Positions 2,521-44,788 of a DNA stretch of 54,238 nucleotides are shown here, one piece after another. The notes under the pieces were generated by a model. That model worked only from the letters and a program-made list of their open reading frames with translations. It was not told where the DNA came from and did not search any database. This DNA comes from a virus (taxonomy: Duplodnaviria; Heunggongvirae; Uroviricota; Caudoviricetes): IMG/VR virus record IMGVR_UViG_2541047842_000005; one strand, 5' to 3'. The number at the start of each line of letters is the position of its first letter. The stretch's first letter is position 1. The translations under genes were made by a program, and so were the position numbers.

Positions 2521-3942
2521 TTAAAAAGATGCGTTATTCTGGTTGTTTCGTGGTGAGAATCGGCTTGCAGACGGACGTTGTTGCATTGACTGGATGCAAG
2601 CTGACGCCGCGCGGGCCTGGTCGCATGGTAAGATGTTGCCGTTGTCGTCAAACCGCTGGTAAACAGTCCCCGTTTTCCCGTGACGGTTTTTCGAAACAAT
2701 GATCTCCATATATTCGCGGGCAACAGACTGTTCATCATAGTACCCGTCGCGGTAGACCATGATGATCCGGTCTGCGTCCTGTTCAAGATTACCGGAATCA
2801 CGCAGATCAGAATTGTTCGGGCGCTTGTTCGGTCGTTCCTCAACGCGGCGGGATAATTGCGCCAGTGCCAACACTGGTACGCGCAATTCTTTCGCCATCA
2901 TCTTCAACGACCATGACAATTGCCCTACAGCGAGATCGTGACGTTCGGCCTTAGCCAGCTTCATCAACCCGATGTAGTCAATCATTACCATACCGAGGTT
3001 GGGATGATCCTGTTTCATCCGTTCCGTTGTGGCGCGTATTTCCTCAACCGTTAATTGAGACGCGTCAACAATCCAAACGTCAAGATTAGCAAGTGCGCTC
3101 ATACCCTGACCAACATGCGCCAACCCCTCATCATCAAGTTTTACAGGATTACGCAGGCAGTCGGTTGATAAATTACCAGCGCCAGCTATAGCGCGTTCAG
3201 TCATCTGATCGAGTGACATTTCAAGCGTGAAGAACAAAACGCCAACCCGCTGATCTTTACTGCCAGGGTAAGGGTGCTCAGCAGCAGCGCGGGCAATCGC
3301 CAGCGCCAACGCAGATTTACCAGACCCAGGGCGTCCGGCGAGAAGTACCAAATCAGTAGCGTTAATACCGCCTAACATTTCGTCGAGCGGTTCTATCCCT
3401 GTTTTGATGTTGTCAGAATTGACACCGCATTCCATGCGCTTGCTTAAAACCTCTGTGTATTCCTGTACCGCATCGCGCAACAGAACAGGAATGATCTTGT
3501 CTTTCGTTACCTTTAATTTTGAATACCGGGAATCAAAATCTTTCATCGTCTCTTTGACGACTTCAAGCGTCCCCGTTTCCAGCTTGTAGCGCATATCGTC
3601 GATGAGTTCTAACATCTGCCGCCGCTGGTGCTCTTCACGTAGTAGCTGCGCATAGCCTTTCAGGTTTGCGGCAGAAGGACACGAACGCGCCGTTTGCATT
3701 AGCGGTACAAAGTTTTCATTGCCAATCTCATCGCCAACCAATAACGCGTCGATAAGATTCCTGTTTCTGGCTTGCGCCCGGATAACTTCAAACGCACGTT
3801 TGTAAAGCGGGATCGTGAACACTTCAGGATCCAGAGTGGCGAGAACATCTTGCGCGTTAGGAGTGAGGCCGCCTAACAGCAGCCCGCCGATAACTGACGC
3901 TTCACGTTCCTGCCGTAGTGAGTTTATTTGCTCAGTTACCAT
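2521..3942 (-). CDS. replicative DNA helicase, DnaB family
   Basis: 473 aa; Walker A LAGRPGSGKSALA, then DnaB-type motifs (FTLEMS, MVMIDYIGLM, ALAQLSRRVEERPNKRPNNSDLRDSGNLEQDAD). Confidence 0.9.
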   Translation of the reverse strand: MVTEQINSLRQEREASVIGGLLLGGLTPNAQDVLATLDPEVFTIPLYKRAFEVIRAQARNRNLIDALLVGDEIGNENFVPLMQTARSCPSAANLKGYAQLLREEHQRRQMLELIDDMRYKLETGTLEVVKETMKDFDSRYSKLKVTKDKIIPVLLRDAVQEYTEVLSKRMECGVNSDNIKTGIEPLDEMLGGINATDLVLLAGRPGSGKSALALAIARAAAEHPYPGSKDQRVGVLFFTLEMSLDQMTERAIAGAGNLSTDCLRNPVKLDDEGLAHVGQGMSALANLDVWIVDASQLTVEEIRATTERMKQDHPNLGMVMIDYIGLMKLAKAERHDLAVGQLSWSLKMMAKELRVPVLALAQLSRRVEERPNKRPNNSDLRDSGNLEQDADRIIMVYRDGYYDEQSVAREYMEIIVSKNRHGKTGTVYQRFDDNGNILPCDQARAASACIQSMQQRPSASRFSPRNNQNNASF

Positions 3943-3960
3943 TATGTTATTGCCTCCGGT

Positions 3961-5079
3961 TTACAAAATGGAATATTCAGGGTAATAAACAAAACGCCCG
4001 ATTTCCCCATGATCCGGGCTGTAAATAATCACCGCTGCCATCCGCCGCGACCGCCATCCGCCATTTGTTGAGTAAGCGTCTTTACCCGCTAACGTGCCGT
4101 GATACTCAACAACGCCTAACGATGATTCAATCAGCCGTTGATGATGCCAGTGCCCGCAATGAGCGTAAACCGCCGCAGACTTGCCAAAGTCTTCTCGCCA
4201 GTCAGAGACGCAGGCAGACAACAAATTTTCAGGTTTTTTGATAGTATGACCGTGATGATATGCAAGGAATGTTTTGCCGTACTGTGTGTGGTGGACGATG
4301 GCAGGTGACACATCAACAGTAACGCGCGGTTCGTCTTCGTAAAAAGCCGCCAGCGCCGCACGTAGCCAGATCATTCCTGACTGGTCGTGATTACCTGATA
4401 ACACCTGAATTTCTACATCCTTATGATTCAACAACATCTTACCTACAGCACGCCGGACCGACCGGATCGCCACATAAACAAGTTTTGCGTAGCGTGAATC
4501 GCAATCTAAGACGTGATTACTTGATGGCGTCACTGGTAATAGCCCGTCCGTGTGAAGCACATCACCGCCGAGAAGCAATACAGCTTTTTCAGACGTTGGT
4601 GCAGCGCCTACAGCGTAGTCAAAGAAGTCATTTAACACGCGTTCAGCGATCCCGGTGTCGTAGCTCTCACCGCATTCAGCTTTATGAGCAAGCGCCCCGA
4701 TATGCAGATCGAATACCGGATAAAGGGCCAGGCTTTTTTGGAAATCAATCTCAGGCACTGGCACAGCCTCCGCGCGTGGTATCTCTTCCGTGAAAGCGTC
4801 ACAAGCCGATTGCATTAGCATTTCCATTTCATCGCGGTCACGGGCTGTTTTAATCCAGCGCATAATCACATTGCCATCCTTATCGACGAGCAATGACTCA
4901 CCATTGACGCCAAAACCCGGCGCGCGACGCGTGGATATTAAACCGCGTTTCGCCAGCCGTGCGCCCAGTCGTTCAACGTTGCGTTTTGCCATTCCATATT
5001 CTTCGGCTATTTGCTTGTAAGTTTTCCCATTGTTGTATTCAGCGATTAATTGCTCGTCGCTGATCTTTCTTTGCGACAT
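3961..5079 (-). CDS. HTH domain fused to calcineurin-like metallophosphoesterase
   Basis: 372 aa; N-terminal HTH (YKQIAEEYGMAKRNVERLGARLAKRGLI); phosphoesterase signature DLHIG...GGDVLHTDG...GNHD; sits immediately upstream of the helicase gene. Confidence 0.65.
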   Translation of the reverse strand: MSQRKISDEQLIAEYNNGKTYKQIAEEYGMAKRNVERLGARLAKRGLISTRRAPGFGVNGESLLVDKDGNVIMRWIKTARDRDEMEMLMQSACDAFTEEIPRAEAVPVPEIDFQKSLALYPVFDLHIGALAHKAECGESYDTGIAERVLNDFFDYAVGAAPTSEKAVLLLGGDVLHTDGLLPVTPSSNHVLDCDSRYAKLVYVAIRSVRRAVGKMLLNHKDVEIQVLSGNHDQSGMIWLRAALAAFYEDEPRVTVDVSPAIVHHTQYGKTFLAYHHGHTIKKPENLLSACVSDWREDFGKSAAVYAHCGHWHHQRLIESSLGVVEYHGTLAGKDAYSTNGGWRSRRMAAVIIYSPDHGEIGRFVYYPEYSIL

Positions 5080-5255
5080 AATGTTATTTCCTCCGGTTCA
5101 CTGAATGAGTATTTATTCATAAAAAACTAATTTTTATTAACATGGGTTTCACGGTGGCAAAAAATGCCAGCAGGGTTAATCAACAACTTATGCAAATTGA
5201 AATAACTACTTAATGAATAACTAATCGTACACATTGTGGTTTACATTTTGTATAT

Positions 5256-6179
5256 TCATTGGCAGCAAACAAGCCCTTTATATGCTTCTTCTACCATGTC
5301 GAATACTTCCGGCCTGTAATAGAAAAACTCATTACTGCCATCAAATTTTACAGGAAAGTTAATTTTATAATTGCTGAAATATTTATGCATCATGCTTTCT
5401 AATTCATGGATATTTTCGGTTGGACCTTCTAACGTTTTCACGACACATAAATCAGGGATTCTAACGCCTGATTTATGTGCGCTTTTTAATACCCGATTTC
5501 TTCGCTTGTTCTCATTAACGCTTACGCCGATTTTCATTTGTGTAGGCACTTCAGGATCATCAACCATGATGTAAAGTTTGCCGAAATTGTGTGACAAAAA
5601 ACCGTGTTTCGCACATTTCGGGCAGCCTTGCCCGCTTTTAATAGCATAAGGTCTAGGCGACCACTTATGATCACAAACCTTGCATCGACATAATACTTTT
5701 GTCCTATCGTTTATTATTTCTCCCAATACTTCAATATCATGATTTACCTTAGTGATAGCGGATAAATGTTCTTCGTGTGATAATGTTCGTCTTTGTGCGA
5801 TTTTTAAACCTTTACATTTCGGGCAGCCGCGCCCGTTTTTTAGGTTGTTAGGTTTAGCCGACCATTCGTGATTACAAACTTTGCAGCGGCATAATGCTTT
5901 TGTATCGCCGTTTATTATTTCGCCAATCACTTCGACATCAGAATTAACCTTCTCGATAGCGGCAACCTGTTCTTCGTGTGATAATTTCATCTTTCCGGCG
6001 CATTTCGGGCAGCCGTAACCGCTTTTAAGATTGTAAGGTCTAGCCGACCATTCGTGACTGCAAACCTTGCAGCGGCAGGATACTTTTGTCCTGTTATTGA
6101 CAATTTCCCCCAGCACTTCGACATCATGATTAACCTTAGCGATAGCCGCAACCTGTTCATCATGTGTTAACTTGCGCAT
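5256..6179 (-). CDS. triple zinc-ribbon repeat protein with C-terminal T5orf172/GIY-YIG-like domain
   Basis: 307 aa; three tandem ~56-aa repeats HxEQVAAIxKVNxDVEVxGEIxNxxTKxxCRCKVCxHEWSAxPxNLKxGxGCPKC; C-terminus GKLYIMVDD..KIGVSVNENKRRNR..H..EFFYY fits the T5orf172 pattern; strong SD AAGGAG. Confidence 0.55.
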   Translation of the reverse strand: MRKLTHDEQVAAIAKVNHDVEVLGEIVNNRTKVSCRCKVCSHEWSARPYNLKSGYGCPKCAGKMKLSHEEQVAAIEKVNSDVEVIGEIINGDTKALCRCKVCNHEWSAKPNNLKNGRGCPKCKGLKIAQRRTLSHEEHLSAITKVNHDIEVLGEIINDRTKVLCRCKVCDHKWSPRPYAIKSGQGCPKCAKHGFLSHNFGKLYIMVDDPEVPTQMKIGVSVNENKRRNRVLKSAHKSGVRIPDLCVVKTLEGPTENIHELESMMHKYFSNYKINFPVKFDGSNEFFYYRPEVFDMVEEAYKGLVCCQ

Positions 6180-7605: not shown

Positions 7606-7863
7606 TCATCCCTCCGGCAACATCACTACATAGACATCACTGAATGCATCAAGACGACAAACAAATCCTTTATCCATTAACGCGGCGAAGGCATCATGTA
7701 CCGTATGAACAGGAAGTTCACACATTGCGGCTACTTCTTTGCGTGATGCATCATGTACCCGTCCTTTGTTATCTGCCTTTTCAGCCAGAGCCATTAAGAC
7801 AAGTTTTTGAATCGGGCTATTAAGTTTTACGTTCCATGCTTTACTAATCATGTTCATACTCAT
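7606..7863 (-). CDS. HTH_36-like DNA-binding protein, first gene of the early operon (Cro-like position)
   Basis: ORF track gives 7606-7941 from a TTG; ATG at 7863 has GGAG 8 nt upstream; NSPIQKLVLMALAEKADNKGRVHDASRKEVAAMCELPVHTVHDAFAALMDKGFV fits an HTH_36-type winged helix. Confidence 0.5.
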   Translation of the reverse strand: MSMNMISKAWNVKLNSPIQKLVLMALAEKADNKGRVHDASRKEVAAMCELPVHTVHDAFAALMDKGFVCRLDAFSDVYVVMLPEG

Positions 7864-8168
7864 CGCATTTTCTCCTATGGTTAGAGTGAACGCGCGGGCG
7901 GGCATCCCATTAGCATTAGATAGCAGTGACTGACCGCTCAACAGATCCCGCCGTTGCGTGATATTTGTTTTTCGCTTCGCAGCGACACCGGATTTTTAAA
8001 GAGCATAAGGTAAGTGCCTTTTTGTGCCTTCAGTTATCTTTTTCCTTGCGTCTTTGCAAGTATGGCCTTACCTTGTCTGCAAGTTTACAAAATGGAATTT
8101 TAAGATCAAGGCTTAAAATACACGTTTTGTGACTTGCATCAAACTTTTTGAGGTTATAGGGTAGCGAC
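7864..8168. promoter_or_regulatory. divergent immunity control region (candidate operators and promoters)
   Basis: Non-coding gap between the divergent cI-like and early-operon genes; repeated half-site TGCAAGT at about 8055-8061 and 8078-8084, and inverted at 8133-8139; also TTTACAAAATGGAAT and TGTGA-N6-TCAAA. Confidence 0.45.
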
Positions 8169-8816
8169 ATGAAAACAAAATGGTATGACTTAGCAAAGCA
8201 GCTCATGCGGGCGCAGGGCATGAGTCAGGATTCACTCGCAGATCTCATGGGGATAACTAAAGGCGGCCTGTCACACTGGCTGAACGGTCGCCGCGAGCCA
8301 AATCTTGAAGATATTGCGCGGATTATGCGGGCGCTTGGTCGTCGGCAGTTCACTGTTACACATGATGGTATGGTCATTGATGATTCTGTTTCTAATACAC
8401 TTCAGGCCGCACCGCCGCGTGATTTAGGTAGTTACCCGGTTATTGACTGGAAGGACACAGTAAACAATATGGATGACACAAGGCGATCAGCATTACCACA
8501 CGTTACGACTAGCGTTATTTGTTCAGATGATAGTTACTGGCTGGTTGCCAAAGGTGAATCAATGAACGCGCCGCAGGGGTTGAGCATCCCGGCGGGGACG
8601 ATGATACTTGTTGACCCGCACGCGCCAGCTATTGACGGCAAACTGGTTATAGCCCAGCTTGAGGAAGGGCAGATACCGACGTTTAAACAGTTGATTATTG
8701 ATGGAGGTCAAAGGCTTTTACGTTCGCTCAATCCGCTGTATCCGCCAATCCCTATGAATCCAGAATCAAAAATTATAGGCGTGGTGGTTGATGCGAAGAT
8801 CGTAAACCTGCCATAA
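8169..8816 (+). CDS. cI: cI-type phage repressor (HTH plus S24 LexA-like peptidase domain)
   Basis: 215 aa; N-terminal HTH (QDSLADLMGITKGGLSHWLNGRREP); C-terminal S24 fold with GESM serine and a downstream FKQL lysine. Confidence 0.85.
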   Translation: MKTKWYDLAKQLMRAQGMSQDSLADLMGITKGGLSHWLNGRREPNLEDIARIMRALGRRQFTVTHDGMVIDDSVSNTLQAAPPRDLGSYPVIDWKDTVNNMDDTRRSALPHVTTSVICSDDSYWLVAKGESMNAPQGLSIPAGTMILVDPHAPAIDGKLVIAQLEEGQIPTFKQLIIDGGQRLLRSLNPLYPPIPMNPESKIIGVVVDAKIVNLP

Positions 8817-8846: not shown

Positions 8847-8939
8847 GCCTGGAAAACGCCAAAACGTAAACAGAAAACGTTATTTATTGTTTAAATATCA
8901 ATAGCATATAAAATATTTTAAAAAAGTATACAAAATGGA

Positions 8940-8968
8940 TTGACTCGATGTTTTACGGGGCGTATATT
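8940..8968 (+). promoter_or_regulatory. sigma70-like promoter (pL analogue)
   Basis: TTGACT, 17-nt spacer, TATATT; a TATACAAAATGG motif lies directly upstream. Confidence 0.4.
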
Positions 8969-9316: not shown

Positions 9317-9607
9317 ATGAGCGTTACAATCATGTATGGCAAATGTGACAGTAAACTGAATGCCAGGGAACGCAGAAAAATAAAAAGAGAAAACGAAAGA
9401 AAATCATCACCTGCAATCAATAAAACAGACAATGTGGATAAAGCTATTCGATTTGCAAACGAGGAAAGATGCAAACCAAATAGCATTAAAGAACGTCGCA
9501 AAGGATCAGTAAAATGGTGTACGGAAAATGAAAGCGGCAGCTACTACCACGCAACGCAACCACGCCATTTAGGGGAAAAACCCCTGGATAAAGTCCGCTA
9601 CCATTAA
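9317..9607 (+). CDS. N-like transcription antiterminator (P22 gp24-like, arginine-rich motif)
   Basis: 96 aa, very basic; N-terminus MSVTIMYGKCDSKLNARERRKIKRENERK parallels the P22 N start (YGK..NAKTRRHERRRK) as I recall it. Confidence 0.55.
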   Translation: MSVTIMYGKCDSKLNARERRKIKRENERKSSPAINKTDNVDKAIRFANEERCKPNSIKERRKGSVKWCTENESGSYYHATQPRHLGEKPLDKVRYH

Positions 9608-9637
9608 TACAAAATGTAAACATCCGGAGGTGACATT

Positions 9638-9760
9638 ATGGTTATTCAGGCGCTTCAATTCAAACTGGCAGTAGCGGAAATGCTTCACGATGCCGAAATG
9701 TGGAGCGCCGCGAATAAAGCCTTATACATAGTGTTAACAGCACGGGAGATTAAATGGTGA
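9638..9760 (+). CDS. small hypothetical protein (40 aa)
   Basis: ATG with strong SD GGAGGTG; stop overlaps the erf start; not in the ORF track. Confidence 0.3.
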   Translation: MVIQALQFKLAVAEMLHDAEMWSAANKALYIVLTAREIKW

Positions 9761-12981: not shown

Positions 12982-13080
12982 CAGCGTGATTGCGATCACA
13001 TAAATATACATTTTGTGTTGTGATCGCGTATCCGTTTTGTAAACCGAAATCAAAAGGTTTACGGCACGGAGGAAAACAAG

Positions 13081-16388: not shown

Positions 16389-16547
16389 AATTTACAAAAT
16401 GGCGCCATTGCGTGATGTGGATCACATAATGGCGCTATTCACCTTGTTCTGGTGTATCCATTTTGTATACTTCAAGCAAACGAAATGCTCTTTAAAAATC
16501 CGGCAGCGCTGAAATGCGTAGAAATCACCTGAAAAGGAGAGAGCATT

Positions 16548-22645: not shown

Positions 22646-22701
22646 ATGTGATCTGTATCACAAGGTTTACGAAATGGCATTGTTTCGGCAGTGCCATTTT
22701 G

Positions 22702-23408
22702 TTGTGCACAGAAAACCCCCAGCTAGGCTGGGGGTTCCGGAAAGCTTTCAGCTTTGAGCCAGTTATTAAAACCCCTTTTGATTTGTTAAAACACCTTGCG
22801 GTCTGGCAACTGCAAGTGTCAAACAAGAAATCAAAAGGGGGTCCCAATGGGGAACGAAAAGAGCTTAGCGCACACCCGATGGAACTGTAAATATCACATA
22901 GTTTTTGCGCCAAAATACCGAAGACAGGTGTTCTACAGAGAGAAGCGTAGAGCAATAGGCAGTATTTTGAGAAAGCTGTGTGAGTGGAAAAGCGTACGGA
23001 TTCTGGAAGCTGAATGCTGTGCAGATCATATCCATATGCTTGTGGAGATCCCGCCTAAAATGAGCGTATCCGGGTTTATGGGATATCTGAAAGGGAAAAG
23101 CAGTCTGATGCTTTACGAGCAGTTTGGTGATTTGAAATTCAAATACAGGAACAGGGAGTTCTGGTGCAGAGGGTACTACGTCGATACAGTGGGTAAGAAC
23201 ACGGCGAAGATACAGGATTACATAAAGCACCAGCTTGAAGAGGATAAAATGGGAGAGCAGTTATCGATTCCCTATCCGGGCAGCCCGTTTACGGGCCGTA
23301 AGTAACGAAGTTGGATGCAAATGTCAGATCGTGTGCGCCTGTTAGGGCGCGGCTGGTAAGAGAGCCTTATAGGCGCATTTGAAAAACCTCCGGCTATGCC
23401 GGAGGATA
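22702..23408 (+). mobile_element. IS200 (IS200/IS605 family) insertion sequence
   Basis: Contains a tnpA colinear with IS200 TnpA; perfect left-end hairpin CCCCCAGC-TAG-GCTGGGGG at 22716-22734, RBS-sequestering inverted repeat at about 22772-22822, right-end hairpin CCTCCGGC-TAT-GCCGGAGG at about 23388-23406; boundaries estimated from the expected ~707 bp length, +/-10 bp. Confidence 0.7.
22847..23305 (+). CDS. tnpA: IS200 transposase TnpA (HUH Y1 transposase)
   Basis: 152 aa from MGNEKSLAHTRWNCKYHIVFAPKYRRQVFY; HxH motif ADHIHMLVEIPP and C-terminal catalytic region RNREFWCRGYYVDTVG match IS200 TnpA; the track ORF 22796-23305 includes an upstream extension. Confidence 0.9.
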   Translation: MGNEKSLAHTRWNCKYHIVFAPKYRRQVFYREKRRAIGSILRKLCEWKSVRILEAECCADHIHMLVEIPPKMSVSGFMGYLKGKSSLMLYEQFGDLKFKYRNREFWCRGYYVDTVGKNTAKIQDYIKHQLEEDKMGEQLSIPYPGSPFTGRK

Positions 23409-35564: not shown

Positions 35565-35582
35565 GTATGTGGAGCAAACAAA

Positions 35583-37889: not shown

Positions 37890-38588
37890 ATGATCCATGT
37901 TCGTACAGGACAATTTGCTGCCGTGGTGAACGGTAAGCGCTATGAGTTTAATCCTTGCTTTGCTGCGATGGCTAAAATCGGCAACGATAGTGAGCTTGTC
38001 GAATATTTCGCACTTATCCACGGCGGCAAATATCCATCACGATTGCCAGCAGATCCAGACCTACGCAATCGCATTCTGGCGCGGTGTTATGGTGAAATAG
38101 TTCAGACATCAATGCACATCCTGAAATGTTGCTCAGACGACGAAATAGGCCCGTTATTGGGCGAATGCTGGTTTACTCCTTCGGGTAAGTTAAAGTTAAA
38201 GCCCGGATTAATGCCGATCGAGGATATCATCACGCTTGCGCAGCACTGCATGTACCACGGTCTTATTGGTGATGGCCCGGAAGAAGAGTCCGGGGAAATC
38301 CCGGAAGGGGAATATAAGCCGACTTTTAACGTCCTTGAATTCGTCTATTCTGCCGTTGCTCACCTGGGCTTGTCAGAATCGGAAGCATGGAATATGACAA
38401 TGACCGGATATAGGGCCGCTGTACGCGCTAAAACGCCGCCAGACGAAAGAAACGAGAAAAGCAAGCCAAACATTCACATAAATAAACGTGCTTATGACGA
38501 GCAAATGGAGGCCGCTAAAAAGGCACTAGAAAGAATGAAAAATCGTGAGCAAGAAAAGCCCGGTAGATCCGGGCGTTTTGCTAATTGA
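37890..38588 (+). CDS. putative tail assembly chaperone
   Basis: 232 aa from ATG 37890 (SD AAGGTG; track start 37881 is a GTG); position between the major tail and tape measure genes. Confidence 0.4.
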   Translation: MIHVRTGQFAAVVNGKRYEFNPCFAAMAKIGNDSELVEYFALIHGGKYPSRLPADPDLRNRILARCYGEIVQTSMHILKCCSDDEIGPLLGECWFTPSGKLKLKPGLMPIEDIITLAQHCMYHGLIGDGPEEESGEIPEGEYKPTFNVLEFVYSAVAHLGLSESEAWNMTMTGYRAAVRAKTPPDERNEKSKPNIHINKRAYDEQMEAAKKALERMKNREQEKPGRSGRFAN

Positions 38589-38955
38589 AATCTTTAATTG
38601 CTGTACCTGGTGAACTGTGTGTGATTGTATTGTATACAGACTTTGCCTTACTGCGATCTTTCCATTCTTTTAGGATGCAGTTATCAAACTTTGCGATAAC
38701 CCTTGAAGGGGATAATTCTTCAACATCCATGTAAGTAAATCCTATCGTGCTGGTTACTGAATACCATACGTGATAACTATAATTACCGTCATGCTCGATT
38801 CTTTGTGGTTCCCCCATTATTTTATTCACTTGCTCACAAGTCATTCCAACTTGCAAATTTTTATCAGCTAACTTAACGAAATCAGTTGATCTTGCGCACC
38901 CTGTAAGAGCTAAAGCCATAACACCAATGAGAACCGCTTTGATTATTTTTTTCAT
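38581..38955 (-). CDS. lipoprotein (moron, opposite strand within the tail operon)
   Basis: 124 aa; signal peptide with lipobox LTGC (MKKIIKAVLIGVMALALTGC). Confidence 0.65.
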   Translation of the reverse strand: MKKIIKAVLIGVMALALTGCARSTDFVKLADKNLQVGMTCEQVNKIMGEPQRIEHDGNYSYHVWYSVTSTIGFTYMDVEELSPSRVIAKFDNCILKEWKDRSKAKSVYNTITHSSPGTAIKDFN

Positions 38956-38965
38956 GATTTACCCC

Positions 38966-39625
38966 TTAATTCCAGTTGCAAGCGTTTTTCACTTTGTCGA
39001 TGTGGTTATAAAGACCATCAATGTTAAACACTGCTTTCTCAATGTCGCCAGCTTCCGGCACTACTTCAATGATGAATTGTTTTTCGTTAACCAGTTTTTT
39101 AATCATTGGGATGGCTTTTTTGCCGTCCCATAATCCAAGAGCTTTATAATTAGTTGACCGCCACCACTCAGTAGCTACAGCTTTGTGAACGCCGATCCGG
39201 TAGTTAATATAAGTAGTGTCCCCGGCGTCAGTTACATGGTGTGACCATGCTACGAACATTTTTGTTTTATTACCCTGGCAAGCGATTGTTAATACCGGTT
39301 TATTCTTATCCTGTGCCTTCAGTGTCGGGAAAGCATCAAGACTTCCGCTGAATTGTTCTGCTTTCACAAAAAGGAATACGTTTTTTGCGTCCTGCATATC
39401 ATCTTTTCTTTCAACTACAAGCCACTGTTTACCAGCATTTTCTTTTTCTAACTGTGCATCGTATGCGGCTTGTTTTGCTTGTTGTTCTGCAAGCCATTTA
39501 GCATTTTTCTCTGCTAATGCTTGTTGCTCTTGATTGGTCACTATAGGCGCTTTTTCATTATCCTCATTGCAACCAACCAGACCCAATACCGCCGCAATCA
39601 TTGCCACTTTTGCTAACCGTTTCAT
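38966..39625 (-). CDS. lipoprotein (moron, opposite strand within the tail operon)
   Basis: 219 aa; signal peptide with lipobox LVGC (MKRLAKVAMIAAVLGLVGC); SD GGTGGG upstream. Confidence 0.65.
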   Translation of the reverse strand: MKRLAKVAMIAAVLGLVGCNEDNEKAPIVTNQEQQALAEKNAKWLAEQQAKQAAYDAQLEKENAGKQWLVVERKDDMQDAKNVFLFVKAEQFSGSLDAFPTLKAQDKNKPVLTIACQGNKTKMFVAWSHHVTDAGDTTYINYRIGVHKAVATEWWRSTNYKALGLWDGKKAIPMIKKLVNEKQFIIEVVPEAGDIEKAVFNIDGLYNHIDKVKNACNWN

Positions 39626-39672
39626 AACCCACCACGCTAACTTGATTTACTGACCATTCCCTTTAGCTTCCT

Positions 39673-39712
39673 TATACAAAATGGAGTCGTTGAAGTAAAG
39701 CCATTTTGTATA
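39673..39712. repeat. inverted repeat TATACAAAATGG - N16 - CCATTTTGTATA in the divergent intergenic region
   Basis: 12-nt arms, perfect; lies between the start of the minus-strand lipoprotein gene and the tape measure gene. Confidence 0.6.
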
Positions 39713-39752
39713 AAATAGATACACAGATCACATTTTTGCATGAGGTTAAATC

Positions 39753-43062: not shown

Positions 43063-43175
43063 TTTGGGCCTCCTTCGTTGGTACTGCTTTTCTTCTTGCT
43101 TTCTGTATACATCTTGTTGCGAACTATGTGAAGCCATATTGTAAACTAGCTATAATCATTGTACTGAAGATCTCA

Positions 43176-43197: not shown

Positions 43198-43229
43198 GAT
43201 ATATACAAAATGTAACTTATGGGGGTTTT

Positions 43230-44659: not shown

Positions 44660-44788
44660 AACGCACATCCGCGCCATTTTGTTAACCATGCTTCCGTTTG
44701 AGTAAAATATACATATTGTAAAAACCATGATCAATCCATTTTGGTGTGATTTAGCGTGACGCATATCACAAAATGACAAGGTGAGAAA

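Follow-up and report, generated by a model that had tools for sequence, protein, structure and literature searches.

The window analysed here is a stretch of 54,238 nucleotides from a virus of the Caudoviricetes (IMG/VR record IMGVR_UViG_2541047842_000005). Megablast against a phage collection identifies it as a temperate Escherichia coli siphophage of the mEp021 (mEpimmI) group, with 82–93% identity to mEp021, mEp010, mEp515 and MagusPhagus in the regions tested. A recent proposal gives this group, which is common in the human gut, the rank of a new family of temperate coliphages. Our subject is the 9-mer ACAAAATGG, which recurs along the window, together with the cI-like immunity repressor gene (8169–8816, plus strand), whose product Rep we propose as its binder. 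Rep matches the Pfam domains HTH_3 (5e-13) and Peptidase_S24 (4e-19), and among solved structures, full-length lambda CI is the closest to it (3BDN, E=1e-19, residues 15–208). In the relatives, the gene is annotated as 'cI repressor'.

The mEpimmI group was described in 2025. Rep021, a CI-like repressor, conferred immunity experimentally, and the N-like antiterminator of these phages acts at nutL, nutR1 and nutR2 (PMC11893012). According to the same paper, Rep 'may' recognise operators that differ from those of lambda; the operators of Rep021 were left undefined, and no operators, promoters or repeated motifs were described (PMC11893012). Our search for later work found none, the literature reached contains no description of the operators of mEpimmI repressors, and a search with the motif sequence returned primer matches only.

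Our gene map combines the list of open reading frames with the annotation of relatives, and 9.9% of the window is intergenic. Orthologous comparisons cover five genomes, namely the window, mEp021, mEp010, mEp515 and MagusPhagus. All promoters named below are predicted, not mapped.

Enrichment and anatomy of the site

On both strands together, ACAAAATGG occurs 14 times against 0.92 expected, and the maximum in dinucleotide shuffles was 5. An unbiased scan with Markov-3 and Markov-5 backgrounds returned ACAAAATG as the top over-represented 8-mer, ACAAAATGG and TACAAAATG as the top 9-mers, and TACAAAATGG and ATACAAAATG as the top 10-mers (P ~1e-8 to 1e-12). With a dinucleotide background trained on intergenic sequence only, the form ACAAAATGK gave 14 words against 0.24 expected. 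The original prediction had described the 9-mer as strongly enriched, with less than one copy expected; this enrichment survives a proper background model, and k-mer counting ranks the word first. Copies of ACAAAATGK are intergenic in 12 of 18 cases, and two more lie at gene boundaries (binomial P = 9e-9).

All nine copies of the 9-mer listed in that prediction are present. The coordinates 3960–3974, 8084–8098, 8927–8938, 16391–16402, 16458–16469, 39673–39684, 39701–39712 and 52114–52125 are exact, and the copy placed at 22692 lies at 22694–22702. Positions 3960–3974 and 8084–8098 carry the identical 15-mer TTTACAAAATGGAAT, and the copies at 16391/16458 and 39673/39701 do form inverted pairs. 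Two variants, at 43203 and 5240, exist but had been placed 1 bp off. Five exact copies had been overlooked: three within genes (8175, 31685 and 45509), one across a start codon (35578) and one between genes (44674). Most copies are thus intergenic or at a boundary as claimed, but not all. The genic copies at 31685 and 45509 are altered or lost in several relatives, and that at 35578 is altered in one (mEp010); all four relatives keep the copy at 8175, which falls within the first codons of cI, unaltered.

The word forms the core of a 17-bp pseudo-palindrome, (G/T)TATACA-NNN-TG(T/G)ATAC, in the conserved context (G/T)T(A/T)TACAAAATG(G/T)A; an example of a predicted operator site is the 17-mer GTATACAAAATGGATAC. 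At 16454–16470, the best palindromic copy reads GTATCCA-TTT-TGTATAC and is near-perfect, and the TGT variants (9605, 5239 and 43201) are symmetric through TACA-N3-TGTA. Orthologous positions in mEp021, mEp010, mEp515 and MagusPhagus also carry the motif. Aligning the orthologous intergenic regions of the five genomes revealed fixed half-sites and a drifting central triplet, such as ACA[A/G/T]AATGG upstream of cI. Changes among relatives fall mainly in the central 3 bp or make the site more palindromic by replacing TGG with TGT; at 39672, three genomes have the more symmetric TGT in the left member of the pair, and two have TGG. Lambda-type operators are likewise about 17 bp long, two-fold (pseudo)symmetric and variable at the centre. 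The motif is a real, conserved regulatory motif.

Repressor homologues and their arrays

In protein searches, the mEpimmI repressors are 90–94% identical, followed by a gap to 55% and about 50%. The 55% identical CI, P0008, comes from a DNA-diverged phage with the same architecture, and its N-terminal arm and recognition helix (ITKGGLSHWLNGRREPN) are identical to those of the window CI. In the P0008 phage, ACAAAATGG is the commonest 9-mer, and copies of TATACAAAA(T/C)G(G/T) surround cI, follow the N-like gene and precede ninG. These sites lie at positions equivalent to those of the window and are dispersed in the same manner. A search of species-representative genomes with CI for related loci found no relative.

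CI homologues of about 35–51% identity also occur in ordinary lambdoid backgrounds. They form five independent lineages, from Citrobacter prophages (L014–16, represented by L014), Enterobacter (L017), metagenomic contigs (L018/19) and further IMG/VR sources (L029 and L031). The cI–cro gap of about 100 bp contains three tandem ATACA-N3-TGTAT 17-mers, with centres 32–33 and 25–26 bp apart, in the four lineages with a complete gap; L017 was excluded from this count, as its contig ends inside the gene upstream of cI. Beyond cI, two or three further sites, 24–25 or 33–34 bp apart, are found in 5 of 5 lineages. The consensus of the outside sites is GAATACA-TAA-TGTATTC. By the lambda paradigm, tandem arrays on both sides of cI are the right and left operators (OR and OL).

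A symmetrised position weight matrix (PWM) was built from 15 outside operators only (L014, L017 and L018), with the window sites left out. Every strong PWM match in the lambdoid backgrounds falls in one of two clusters flanking cI, a result that loses weight as support for CI operators because the matches in L014, L017 and L018, the training loci, are partly circular. The training did not involve L029, L031, one of the L018 sites or any mEpimmI site. Scanning the window gave 9 matches of at least 14 bits against 0.4 expected (maximum 2 in 60 simulations), 8 of them intergenic or at a boundary, and 18 matches of at least 10 bits against 4.7 expected. On an intergenic-only null, the counts were 8 against 0.08 at the higher threshold and 12 against 0.67 at the lower. 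The top matches are the copies noticed originally and four that are invisible to a word search (52079, 44707, 13004 and 13028). Each of the five genomes has 8–10 sites of at least 14 bits. The map of the window comprises 13 extragenic sites that reach 10 bits or more and 5–6 weaker conserved copies, from 3959 to 52129.

We also compared viral loci anchored on homologues of erf, a neighbour of the window cI (n=80). All 7 of 7 loci with this CI helix-turn-helix carry 4–6 sites, a count that also weighs less for the CI assignment, since these seven close IMG/VR loci are not phylogenetically independent. No site was found in 51 of the 63 loci without it. None of four exceptions contradicts the association: L076 and L080 have scattered matches, and L085 and L086 are contigs ending 0.9–1.7 kb upstream of erf, whose matches form one 11-bp tandem array. 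This array (L085 2756–2794, L086 3529–3567) reads GGATACAAAAT GTATACAAAAT GGATACAATCT GGATAC in these unrelated erf-containing contigs. It looks iteron-like and unlike the paired operators, and the repressor region is cut off in both contigs.

Beyond the group of the window, the motif co-occurs with the repressor DNA-binding domain across six CI lineages (the P0008 phage, L014, L017, L018/19, L029 and L031). Covariation between recognition helix and half-site is uninformative, the TAC(A/G) core being kept in every CI lineage examined. Our comparisons support the idea that the motif is likely the core of the operator for the phage's own lambda-CI-type immunity repressor Rep, across about ten loci that include tail-gene promoters. 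The original prediction had offered a binding site for a phage or host regulator; its phage half is strongly supported, as an operator family of this CI-like repressor, and a host factor is disfavoured.

A different phage regulator might instead be the main binder, with CI recognising something else. The candidate is the 81-aa product of 7606–7851, or another small DNA-binding protein. This gene is the first leftward gene, in the position of cro, and its product is annotated as helix-turn-helix/MarR-like in mEp021, although it has no Pfam DNA-binding domain match. Under the lambda paradigm, Cro shares its operators with CI and a second binder is expected anyway. Conservation within the group cannot separate the two, because the mEpimmI proteins all travel together. 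What separates them is the comparison with other backgrounds: the motif is found beside the CI homologues of the distant phage and of five lambdoid backgrounds, whose Cro-position proteins are unrelated to the 7606–7851 product. The Cro proteins of the lambdoid backgrounds are related to one another, BLASTP found no match between them and the window protein, and no homologue of them is encoded in the window. Because the Cro-position protein of the window is unrelated to those of the other motif-bearing genomes, the CI helix-turn-helix is the only shared candidate binder; no other protein is common to all motif-bearing genomes examined. We consider a different main binder improbable.

Sites at predicted promoters and inside operons

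Many of the sites can be described by their place in a predicted sigma-70 promoter. Centres at -16 to -18 recur in eight to nine such promoters, where a half-site contributes its outer TA as the first two bases of the -10 element. Pair spacings of 24, 25 and 34–35 bp match the arrays of the outside prophages. On both flanks of the immunity gene, sites overlap the early lytic promoters, the predicted PL (-16) and PR (-41 and -16), the hexamers of both being conserved in the five genomes. Scores in bits refer to the external PWM.

The predicted leftward promoter PL consists of TTGATC (reverse complement of 8104–8109), 16 bp and TAAACT (reverse complement of 8082–8087). Its spacer and -10 are covered by GTTTACAAAATGGAATT (8083–8099; 11.1 bits), centred at about -16. 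The -35 and -10 are kept in the five genomes, and the spacer is variable. The central base of the site is A, G or T, and the site reaches only 0.3–8.6 bits in three relatives. A weaker partner, ATACACGTTTTGTGACT (8118–8134; 8.5 bits, 8.5–12.5 bits in relatives), has its centre 35 bp from the 8083 site and ranks at the 99th percentile of the best partners at random positions. We notice a boxA-like nutL element downstream of PL, at 7993–8004 (minus strand). We also notice a possible leaderless cI transcript, from TTGCAT (8134–8139), 17 bp and TAGGGT (8157–8162), whose start, near 8169, would coincide with the A of the start codon of cI. The region 8134–8171 is almost fully conserved in the five genomes, no Shine-Dalgarno sequence is evident, and the arrangement may be likened to lambda PRM.

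On the other flank, the predicted rightward promoter PR consists of TTGACT (8940–8945), 17 bp and TATATT (8963–8968). The site GTATACAAAATGGATTG (8926–8942; 16.2 bits) abuts its -35, is centred at about -41 and is identical in 5 of 5 genomes; the same junction of operator and -35 is present in the distant phage L010 and in L031. A weak partner, TTTTACG-GGG-CGTATAT (8951–8967; 4.5 bits), lies over the PR spacer and -10, centred at about -16 and 25 bp from the 8926 site. It exceeds the 95th percentile of partner sites, its half-sites fit, and its central GGG is penalised. Within it, ACGGGGCGTATAT is conserved in the five genomes and the neighbouring spacer is variable. L031 has the same -41/-16 layout, with the junction …GTATTGACTCGAT… and a clear -16 partner. 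The site at 8951–8967 is the least certain of those listed.

Further into the rightward early region, an internal promoter is predicted from TTGTGA (13018–13023), 16 bp and TAAACC (13040–13045). Two sites 24 bp apart accompany it: ATATACATTTTGTGTTG (13004–13020; 15.6 bits, conserved), centred at about -40, and GTATCCGTTTTGTAAAC (13028–13044; 12.8 bits), which covers the spacer and -10 at about -16. Before nutR2, TTGTTC (16444–16449), 16 bp and TATACT (16466–16471) form another predicted promoter, followed by the boxA-like GCTCTTTAAAAA at 16487–16498. Its spacer and -10 contain GTATCCATTTTGTATAC (16454–16470; 16.6 bits), centred at about -16 and identical in the five genomes. The half-site copy ATTTACAAAATGGCGCC (16390–16406), 64 bp upstream, contains the exact ACAAAATGG and scores 1.9 bits as a 17-mer; it is nearly unchanged in the five genomes, with one or two flanking bases different. 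The boxA-like element recurs as GCTCTTTAAAAA(TCCGG) at 16487–16498 (plus) and 7993–8004 (minus), which fits the published nutR2 and nutL positions. Since boxA-like elements stand beyond both the nutR2-proximal promoter and PL, each nut site would have its own operator-controlled promoter.

Several other short sequences lie near these sites. CRP-like palindromes, GTGA-N6-TCAC, stand beside repressor sites in intergenic sequence at 12986–12999, 16412–16425, 22648–22661 (AAATGTGATCTGTATCACAAGG) and 44756–44769, and within genes at 4552, 9164 and 48119. Two of them, at about -59.5 of the predicted 13-kb and 16.4-kb promoters, suggest a cAMP-CRP input to early transcription. Two copies of GATCACA(A/T)AATGG, at 16420 and 52113, each lie 34 bp away from a strong site. 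The 12-mer ACACAGATCACA, with a Dam GATC inside, is found downstream of the tape-measure promoter region (39721–39732) and upstream of the side-tail-fibre -10 (52108–52119).

The tail region has candidate operators of its own, far from cI. Divergent predicted promoters of the tape-measure region span 39671–39716 and contain an inverted pair of sites. The left site, TTATACAAAATGGAGTC (39672–39688; 11.3 bits), is centred at about -16 of the leftward promoter (TTTACT, 17 bp, TATAAG); in mEp010, mEp021 and mEp515, TGT replaces TGG and the score is 16.2–20.2 bits. The right site, AAAGCCATTTTGTATAA (39697–39713; 10.6 bits, conserved), overlaps the -10 (TAAAAT, 39711–39716) of the rightward tape-measure promoter. 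The centres are 25 bp apart, and each site lies at -16 to -18 for one divergent promoter and at -41 to -43 for the other. A 241-bp stretch around 39673–39712 is 100% identical to prophages of several complete E. coli genomes. To the left, a leftward cassette between tail genes (38581–39625, minus strand) carries genes for a VasI/TagO-like protein, of a kind associated with type VI secretion, and for a small BamE/DUF7738-like one. Different genes take its place in relatives, and the sequences become homologous again about 20 bp to the left of the paired sites.

Further tail sites follow. At 43130–43146, GAAGCCATATTGTAAAC (8.8 bits), or CCATTTTGTAAAC in relatives (7.8–8.8 bits), leads into TAAACT (43142–43147) and lies near -16. 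Upstream of a minor tail gene, ATATACAAAATGTAACT (43201–43217) is centred near -16 of a leftward promoter predicted with TATATA as its -10; it scores 16.0 bits in the window and MagusPhagus and 10.8 bits, as GTATGCAATATGTAACT, in three relatives. Upstream of tail gene L, the promoter scan found a leftward promoter at 44734–44706 (minus strand; TTGATC, 17 bp, TATATT), whose spacer and -10 are covered by ATATACATATTGTAAAA (44707–44723; 16.0 bits, conserved) at about -16. The half-site copy CGCGCCATTTTGTTAAC (44670–44686), 37 bp from it, has the exact word, is identical in the five genomes and has a low full-site score. Upstream of the side-tail-fibre gene, AAATACATTATGTATAA (52079–52095) gives the window maximum of 19.9 bits (16.3–18.9 in relatives); it is centred at -51 of the side-tail-fibre promoter and had escaped the original prediction. 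The half-site copy GATCACAAAATGGTAGA (52113–52129), 34 bp from it and identical in the five genomes, lies at about -17 and overlaps the extended -10 TGgTAGAAT (52123–52131), which had been correctly recognised. Predicted terminators between these units explain why separate promoters, and with them separate operators, would be required for the tail genes.

The sites at 3959, 5239 and 9605 lie inside operons, the first and last directly beside ribosome-binding sites. GTTTACAAAATGGAATA (3959–3975; 11.1 bits) adjoins the ribosome-binding site of the helicase gene in the leftward operon. It is kept in three relatives, two of them with an adjoining HNH endonuclease insertion, and its orthologue was not recovered in mEp010. 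The HNH homing-endonuclease gene sits at 3976–3985, beside the helicase-proximal operator, in mEp021, mEp515 and mEp010; the window and MagusPhagus are without it. GTTTACATTTTGTATAT (5239–5255; 16.5 bits) lies between genes 3961–5079 and 5256–6179 of the leftward operon, and the promoter scan gave a plus-strand promoter-like match over it (TACACA, 17 bp, TATATT). A similar site, GTTTACAGAATGTATAT, is upstream of the orthologue of gene 3961–5079 in MagusPhagus and mEp010. TAATACAAAATGTAAAC (9605–9621; 17.3 bits) lies directly 3' of the N-like antiterminator gene and 3 bp before the next ribosome-binding site. It is conserved in 5 of 5 genomes, and the distant phage L010 has a site at the same position (11279; 18.5 bits). 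These intra-operon sites could be either roadblocks or anchoring sites.

We also observed a repeated cassette of operator and ribosome-binding site: …TGTAAAC, 0–3 bp, CGGAGG, 7–9 nt, ATG. It occurs at 3942–3975, at 9605–9640 and in the MagusPhagus and mEp010 orthologues of about 5079–5110, and it precedes the helicase gene, the gene upstream of the helicase (in relatives) and the gene after the N-like antiterminator. The window copy at about 5100 is decayed, with a new site at 5239–5255 beyond an insertion. Finally, a strong PWM match inside the portal gene, TTATACAAACTGTATCG (30661–30677; 16.3 bits), is kept in mEp010 and mEp515 and weakened in MagusPhagus and mEp021. It may be a chance match or an intragenic operator.

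The geometry of these promoters raises a second alternative, in which polymerase itself reads the motif as a spacer/-10 signature (CCATTTTG-TAnnnT) that marks one co-regulated promoter class. The original prediction had proposed a shared promoter element, and as a description of the eight to nine promoters centred at -16 to -18 this stands; as an explanation it does not. The 52117 copy does lie within a true extended -10. However, a TG at -15/-14 is found only at 52123–52131, and elsewhere the TG abuts the hexamer (-14/-13). Conserved copies at about -41 (8926 and 13004) and -51 (52079) have no place in such a signature, nor do the two-fold symmetry and the variable central triplet. A start site at 3959 or 9605 would remove the adjoining ribosome-binding site, and the three copies within about 90–100 bp between cI and cro of other prophages are impossible as three promoters. 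We judge a polymerase-read element to be somewhat less probable still than a different phage binder.

Proposed mechanism and comparison with known systems

Two remaining explanations look beyond the phage's own regulators, and both are very improbable. A host transcription or nucleoid factor of E. coli could use the site at phage promoters; AT-rich pseudo-palindromes are common targets of host factors, and host-factor-like sites are nearby, as GTGA-N6-TCAC is itself enriched (7 against 0.63 expected). The motif, however, follows the phage repressor clade over different hosts and backbones (Citrobacter, Enterobacter, metagenomic phages) and is absent from most erf-containing phages that do not have that repressor. 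To our knowledge, the consensus of none of DnaA, IHF, LexA, TyrR, OmpR and CRP fits it.

The sites could also be boundary sequences whose short homologies promote module exchange between phages, as had been suggested. Homology to relatives does break near sites at 39654, 52053–52078, 3976–3985 (the HNH insertion) and about 5100–5240; in some E. coli prophages it begins exactly at 39673, and one genome matches only 39654–39732. Across four relatives, however, only 5 of 76 breakpoint clusters fall within 60 bp of a site, and the share of gene-junction breakpoints near one (3 of 34, 9%) equals the share of all gene junctions (8 of 94, 9%); exchange also leaves the palindrome, the fixed promoter geometry and the CI link unexplained. 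Recombination between such shared regulatory sequences may still happen to some extent as a by-product. An RNA hairpin at 39673–39712 (-13.5 kcal/mol, z = -3.75) was rejected, as a G-to-T change in three relatives breaks a pair uncompensated, no other site folds, and the predicted starts point away from the repeat.

If Rep is the binder, a Rep dimer would place one helix-turn-helix on each TACA/TGTA half-site. Sites near -16 would cover the spacer and -10 of sigma-70 promoters and exclude RNA polymerase. A second site 24–25 or 34–35 bp away, centred at about -41 or -51, would allow two dimers to cooperate through their C-terminal S24 domains, in the manner of lambda OR1 and OR2. The targets would be the early promoters before nutL, nutR1 and nutR2, one internal early promoter and the divergent tail-region promoters, the last of which would restart tail-gene transcription past the leftward-facing accessory cassettes. 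A single repressor would directly keep all sigma-70 promoters of the prophage silent in a lysogen. Once Rep is lost, they would all be released together, and the N-like and Q-like antiterminators would then extend the transcripts.

Several points weigh against Rep operators as the explanation. All of the support comes from sequence comparison. Many window copies have TGG for TGT and a poor second half-site, and the conserved copies at 16390, 44670, 52113, 43130 and 8118 score low as full sites and may be unbound alone. Several predicted promoters have weak -35 elements; that of the tentative tape-measure promoter (TTGAAG, 15-bp spacer) is among them, and MagusPhagus has not kept it. Whether PR would be repressed or activated is uncertain, because the strong site lies at -41 and the -16 partner has only 4.5 bits; lambda CI activates PRM from a position near -41. 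The ribosome-binding-site-adjacent sites at 3959 and 9605 overlap no credible promoter. Some leftward cassettes with an upstream site, such as the lipoprotein exclusion gene, would be expected to be on in lysogens and fit poorly with simple repression.

A broader proposal is possible but doubtful. A CI-family repressor may have been re-deployed from a two-cluster switch to a genome-wide network, with paired -41/-16 operators on every sigma-70 promoter, including the tail-restart and accessory-cassette promoters. In such a network, single high-affinity sites beside ribosome-binding sites within operons would act as elongation roadblocks, and several promoters would also be controlled by CRP.

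Our analysis provides a testable operator consensus, (G/T)TATACA-NNN-TG(T/G)ATAC, a map of about 19 sites, and at least 8 predicted promoters, three of which would feed the published nut sites. It suggests a dispersed network run by a lambda-type repressor; such networks are otherwise known from P1 and L5-like mycobacteriophages. The sites bear on the evolution of immunity specificity, on the silencing and expression of accessory cassettes in the tail region, and on prophage engineering or induction. No new class of mechanism is opened.

The closest known system is the lambda CI/Cro operators. Both share the repressor family (HTH_3 and S24, with lambda CI as the best PDB match) and 17-bp pseudo-palindromes with one strong and one weaker half-site, neighbours being about 24–25 bp apart. 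In both, sites overlap the early promoters on the two sides of cI, and the triple arrays of ordinary lambdoid prophages with homologous repressors are built from the same half-site as the window sites. The two OR/OL clusters of three are absent from the window, where singles and pairs are spread over about ten loci; these extend up to 44 kb from cI and include the tail region and operon interiors. Also unlike lambda, the window cI is co-directional with the rightward early operon, and a terminator of its own lies between cI and PR.

In its dispersal, the window resembles two other systems. The C1 repressor of phage P1 has 22 dispersed operators, asymmetric 17-mers of the consensus ATTGCTCTAATAAATTT (PMC8546580). 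As in the window, one immunity repressor has many operators over a whole coliphage genome, each at its own promoter. The window sites, however, are two-fold symmetric, their proposed binder is of the lambda-CI type with HTH_3 and S24, and ATTGCTCTAATAAATTT is unrelated. Mycobacteriophage L5 gp71 binds asymmetric 13-mers as a monomer with two DNA-binding domains, the orientation of the sites follows transcription, and the intra-operon stoperators could block elongating polymerase (PMC9283540). The L5 stoperators, like the window sites, are numerous in short intergenic spaces, some at promoters and some inside operons. An L5-like orientation bias is absent among copies between co-directional genes, where the ACAAAATGK strand runs with transcription in 3 cases and against it in 4. 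Since P1 C1 and L5 gp71 both use asymmetric sites and unrelated repressors, the window belongs to neither kind. If the genome-wide network is real, it would be the symmetric-operator, dimeric counterpart of both, combined with N-like and Q-like antitermination.

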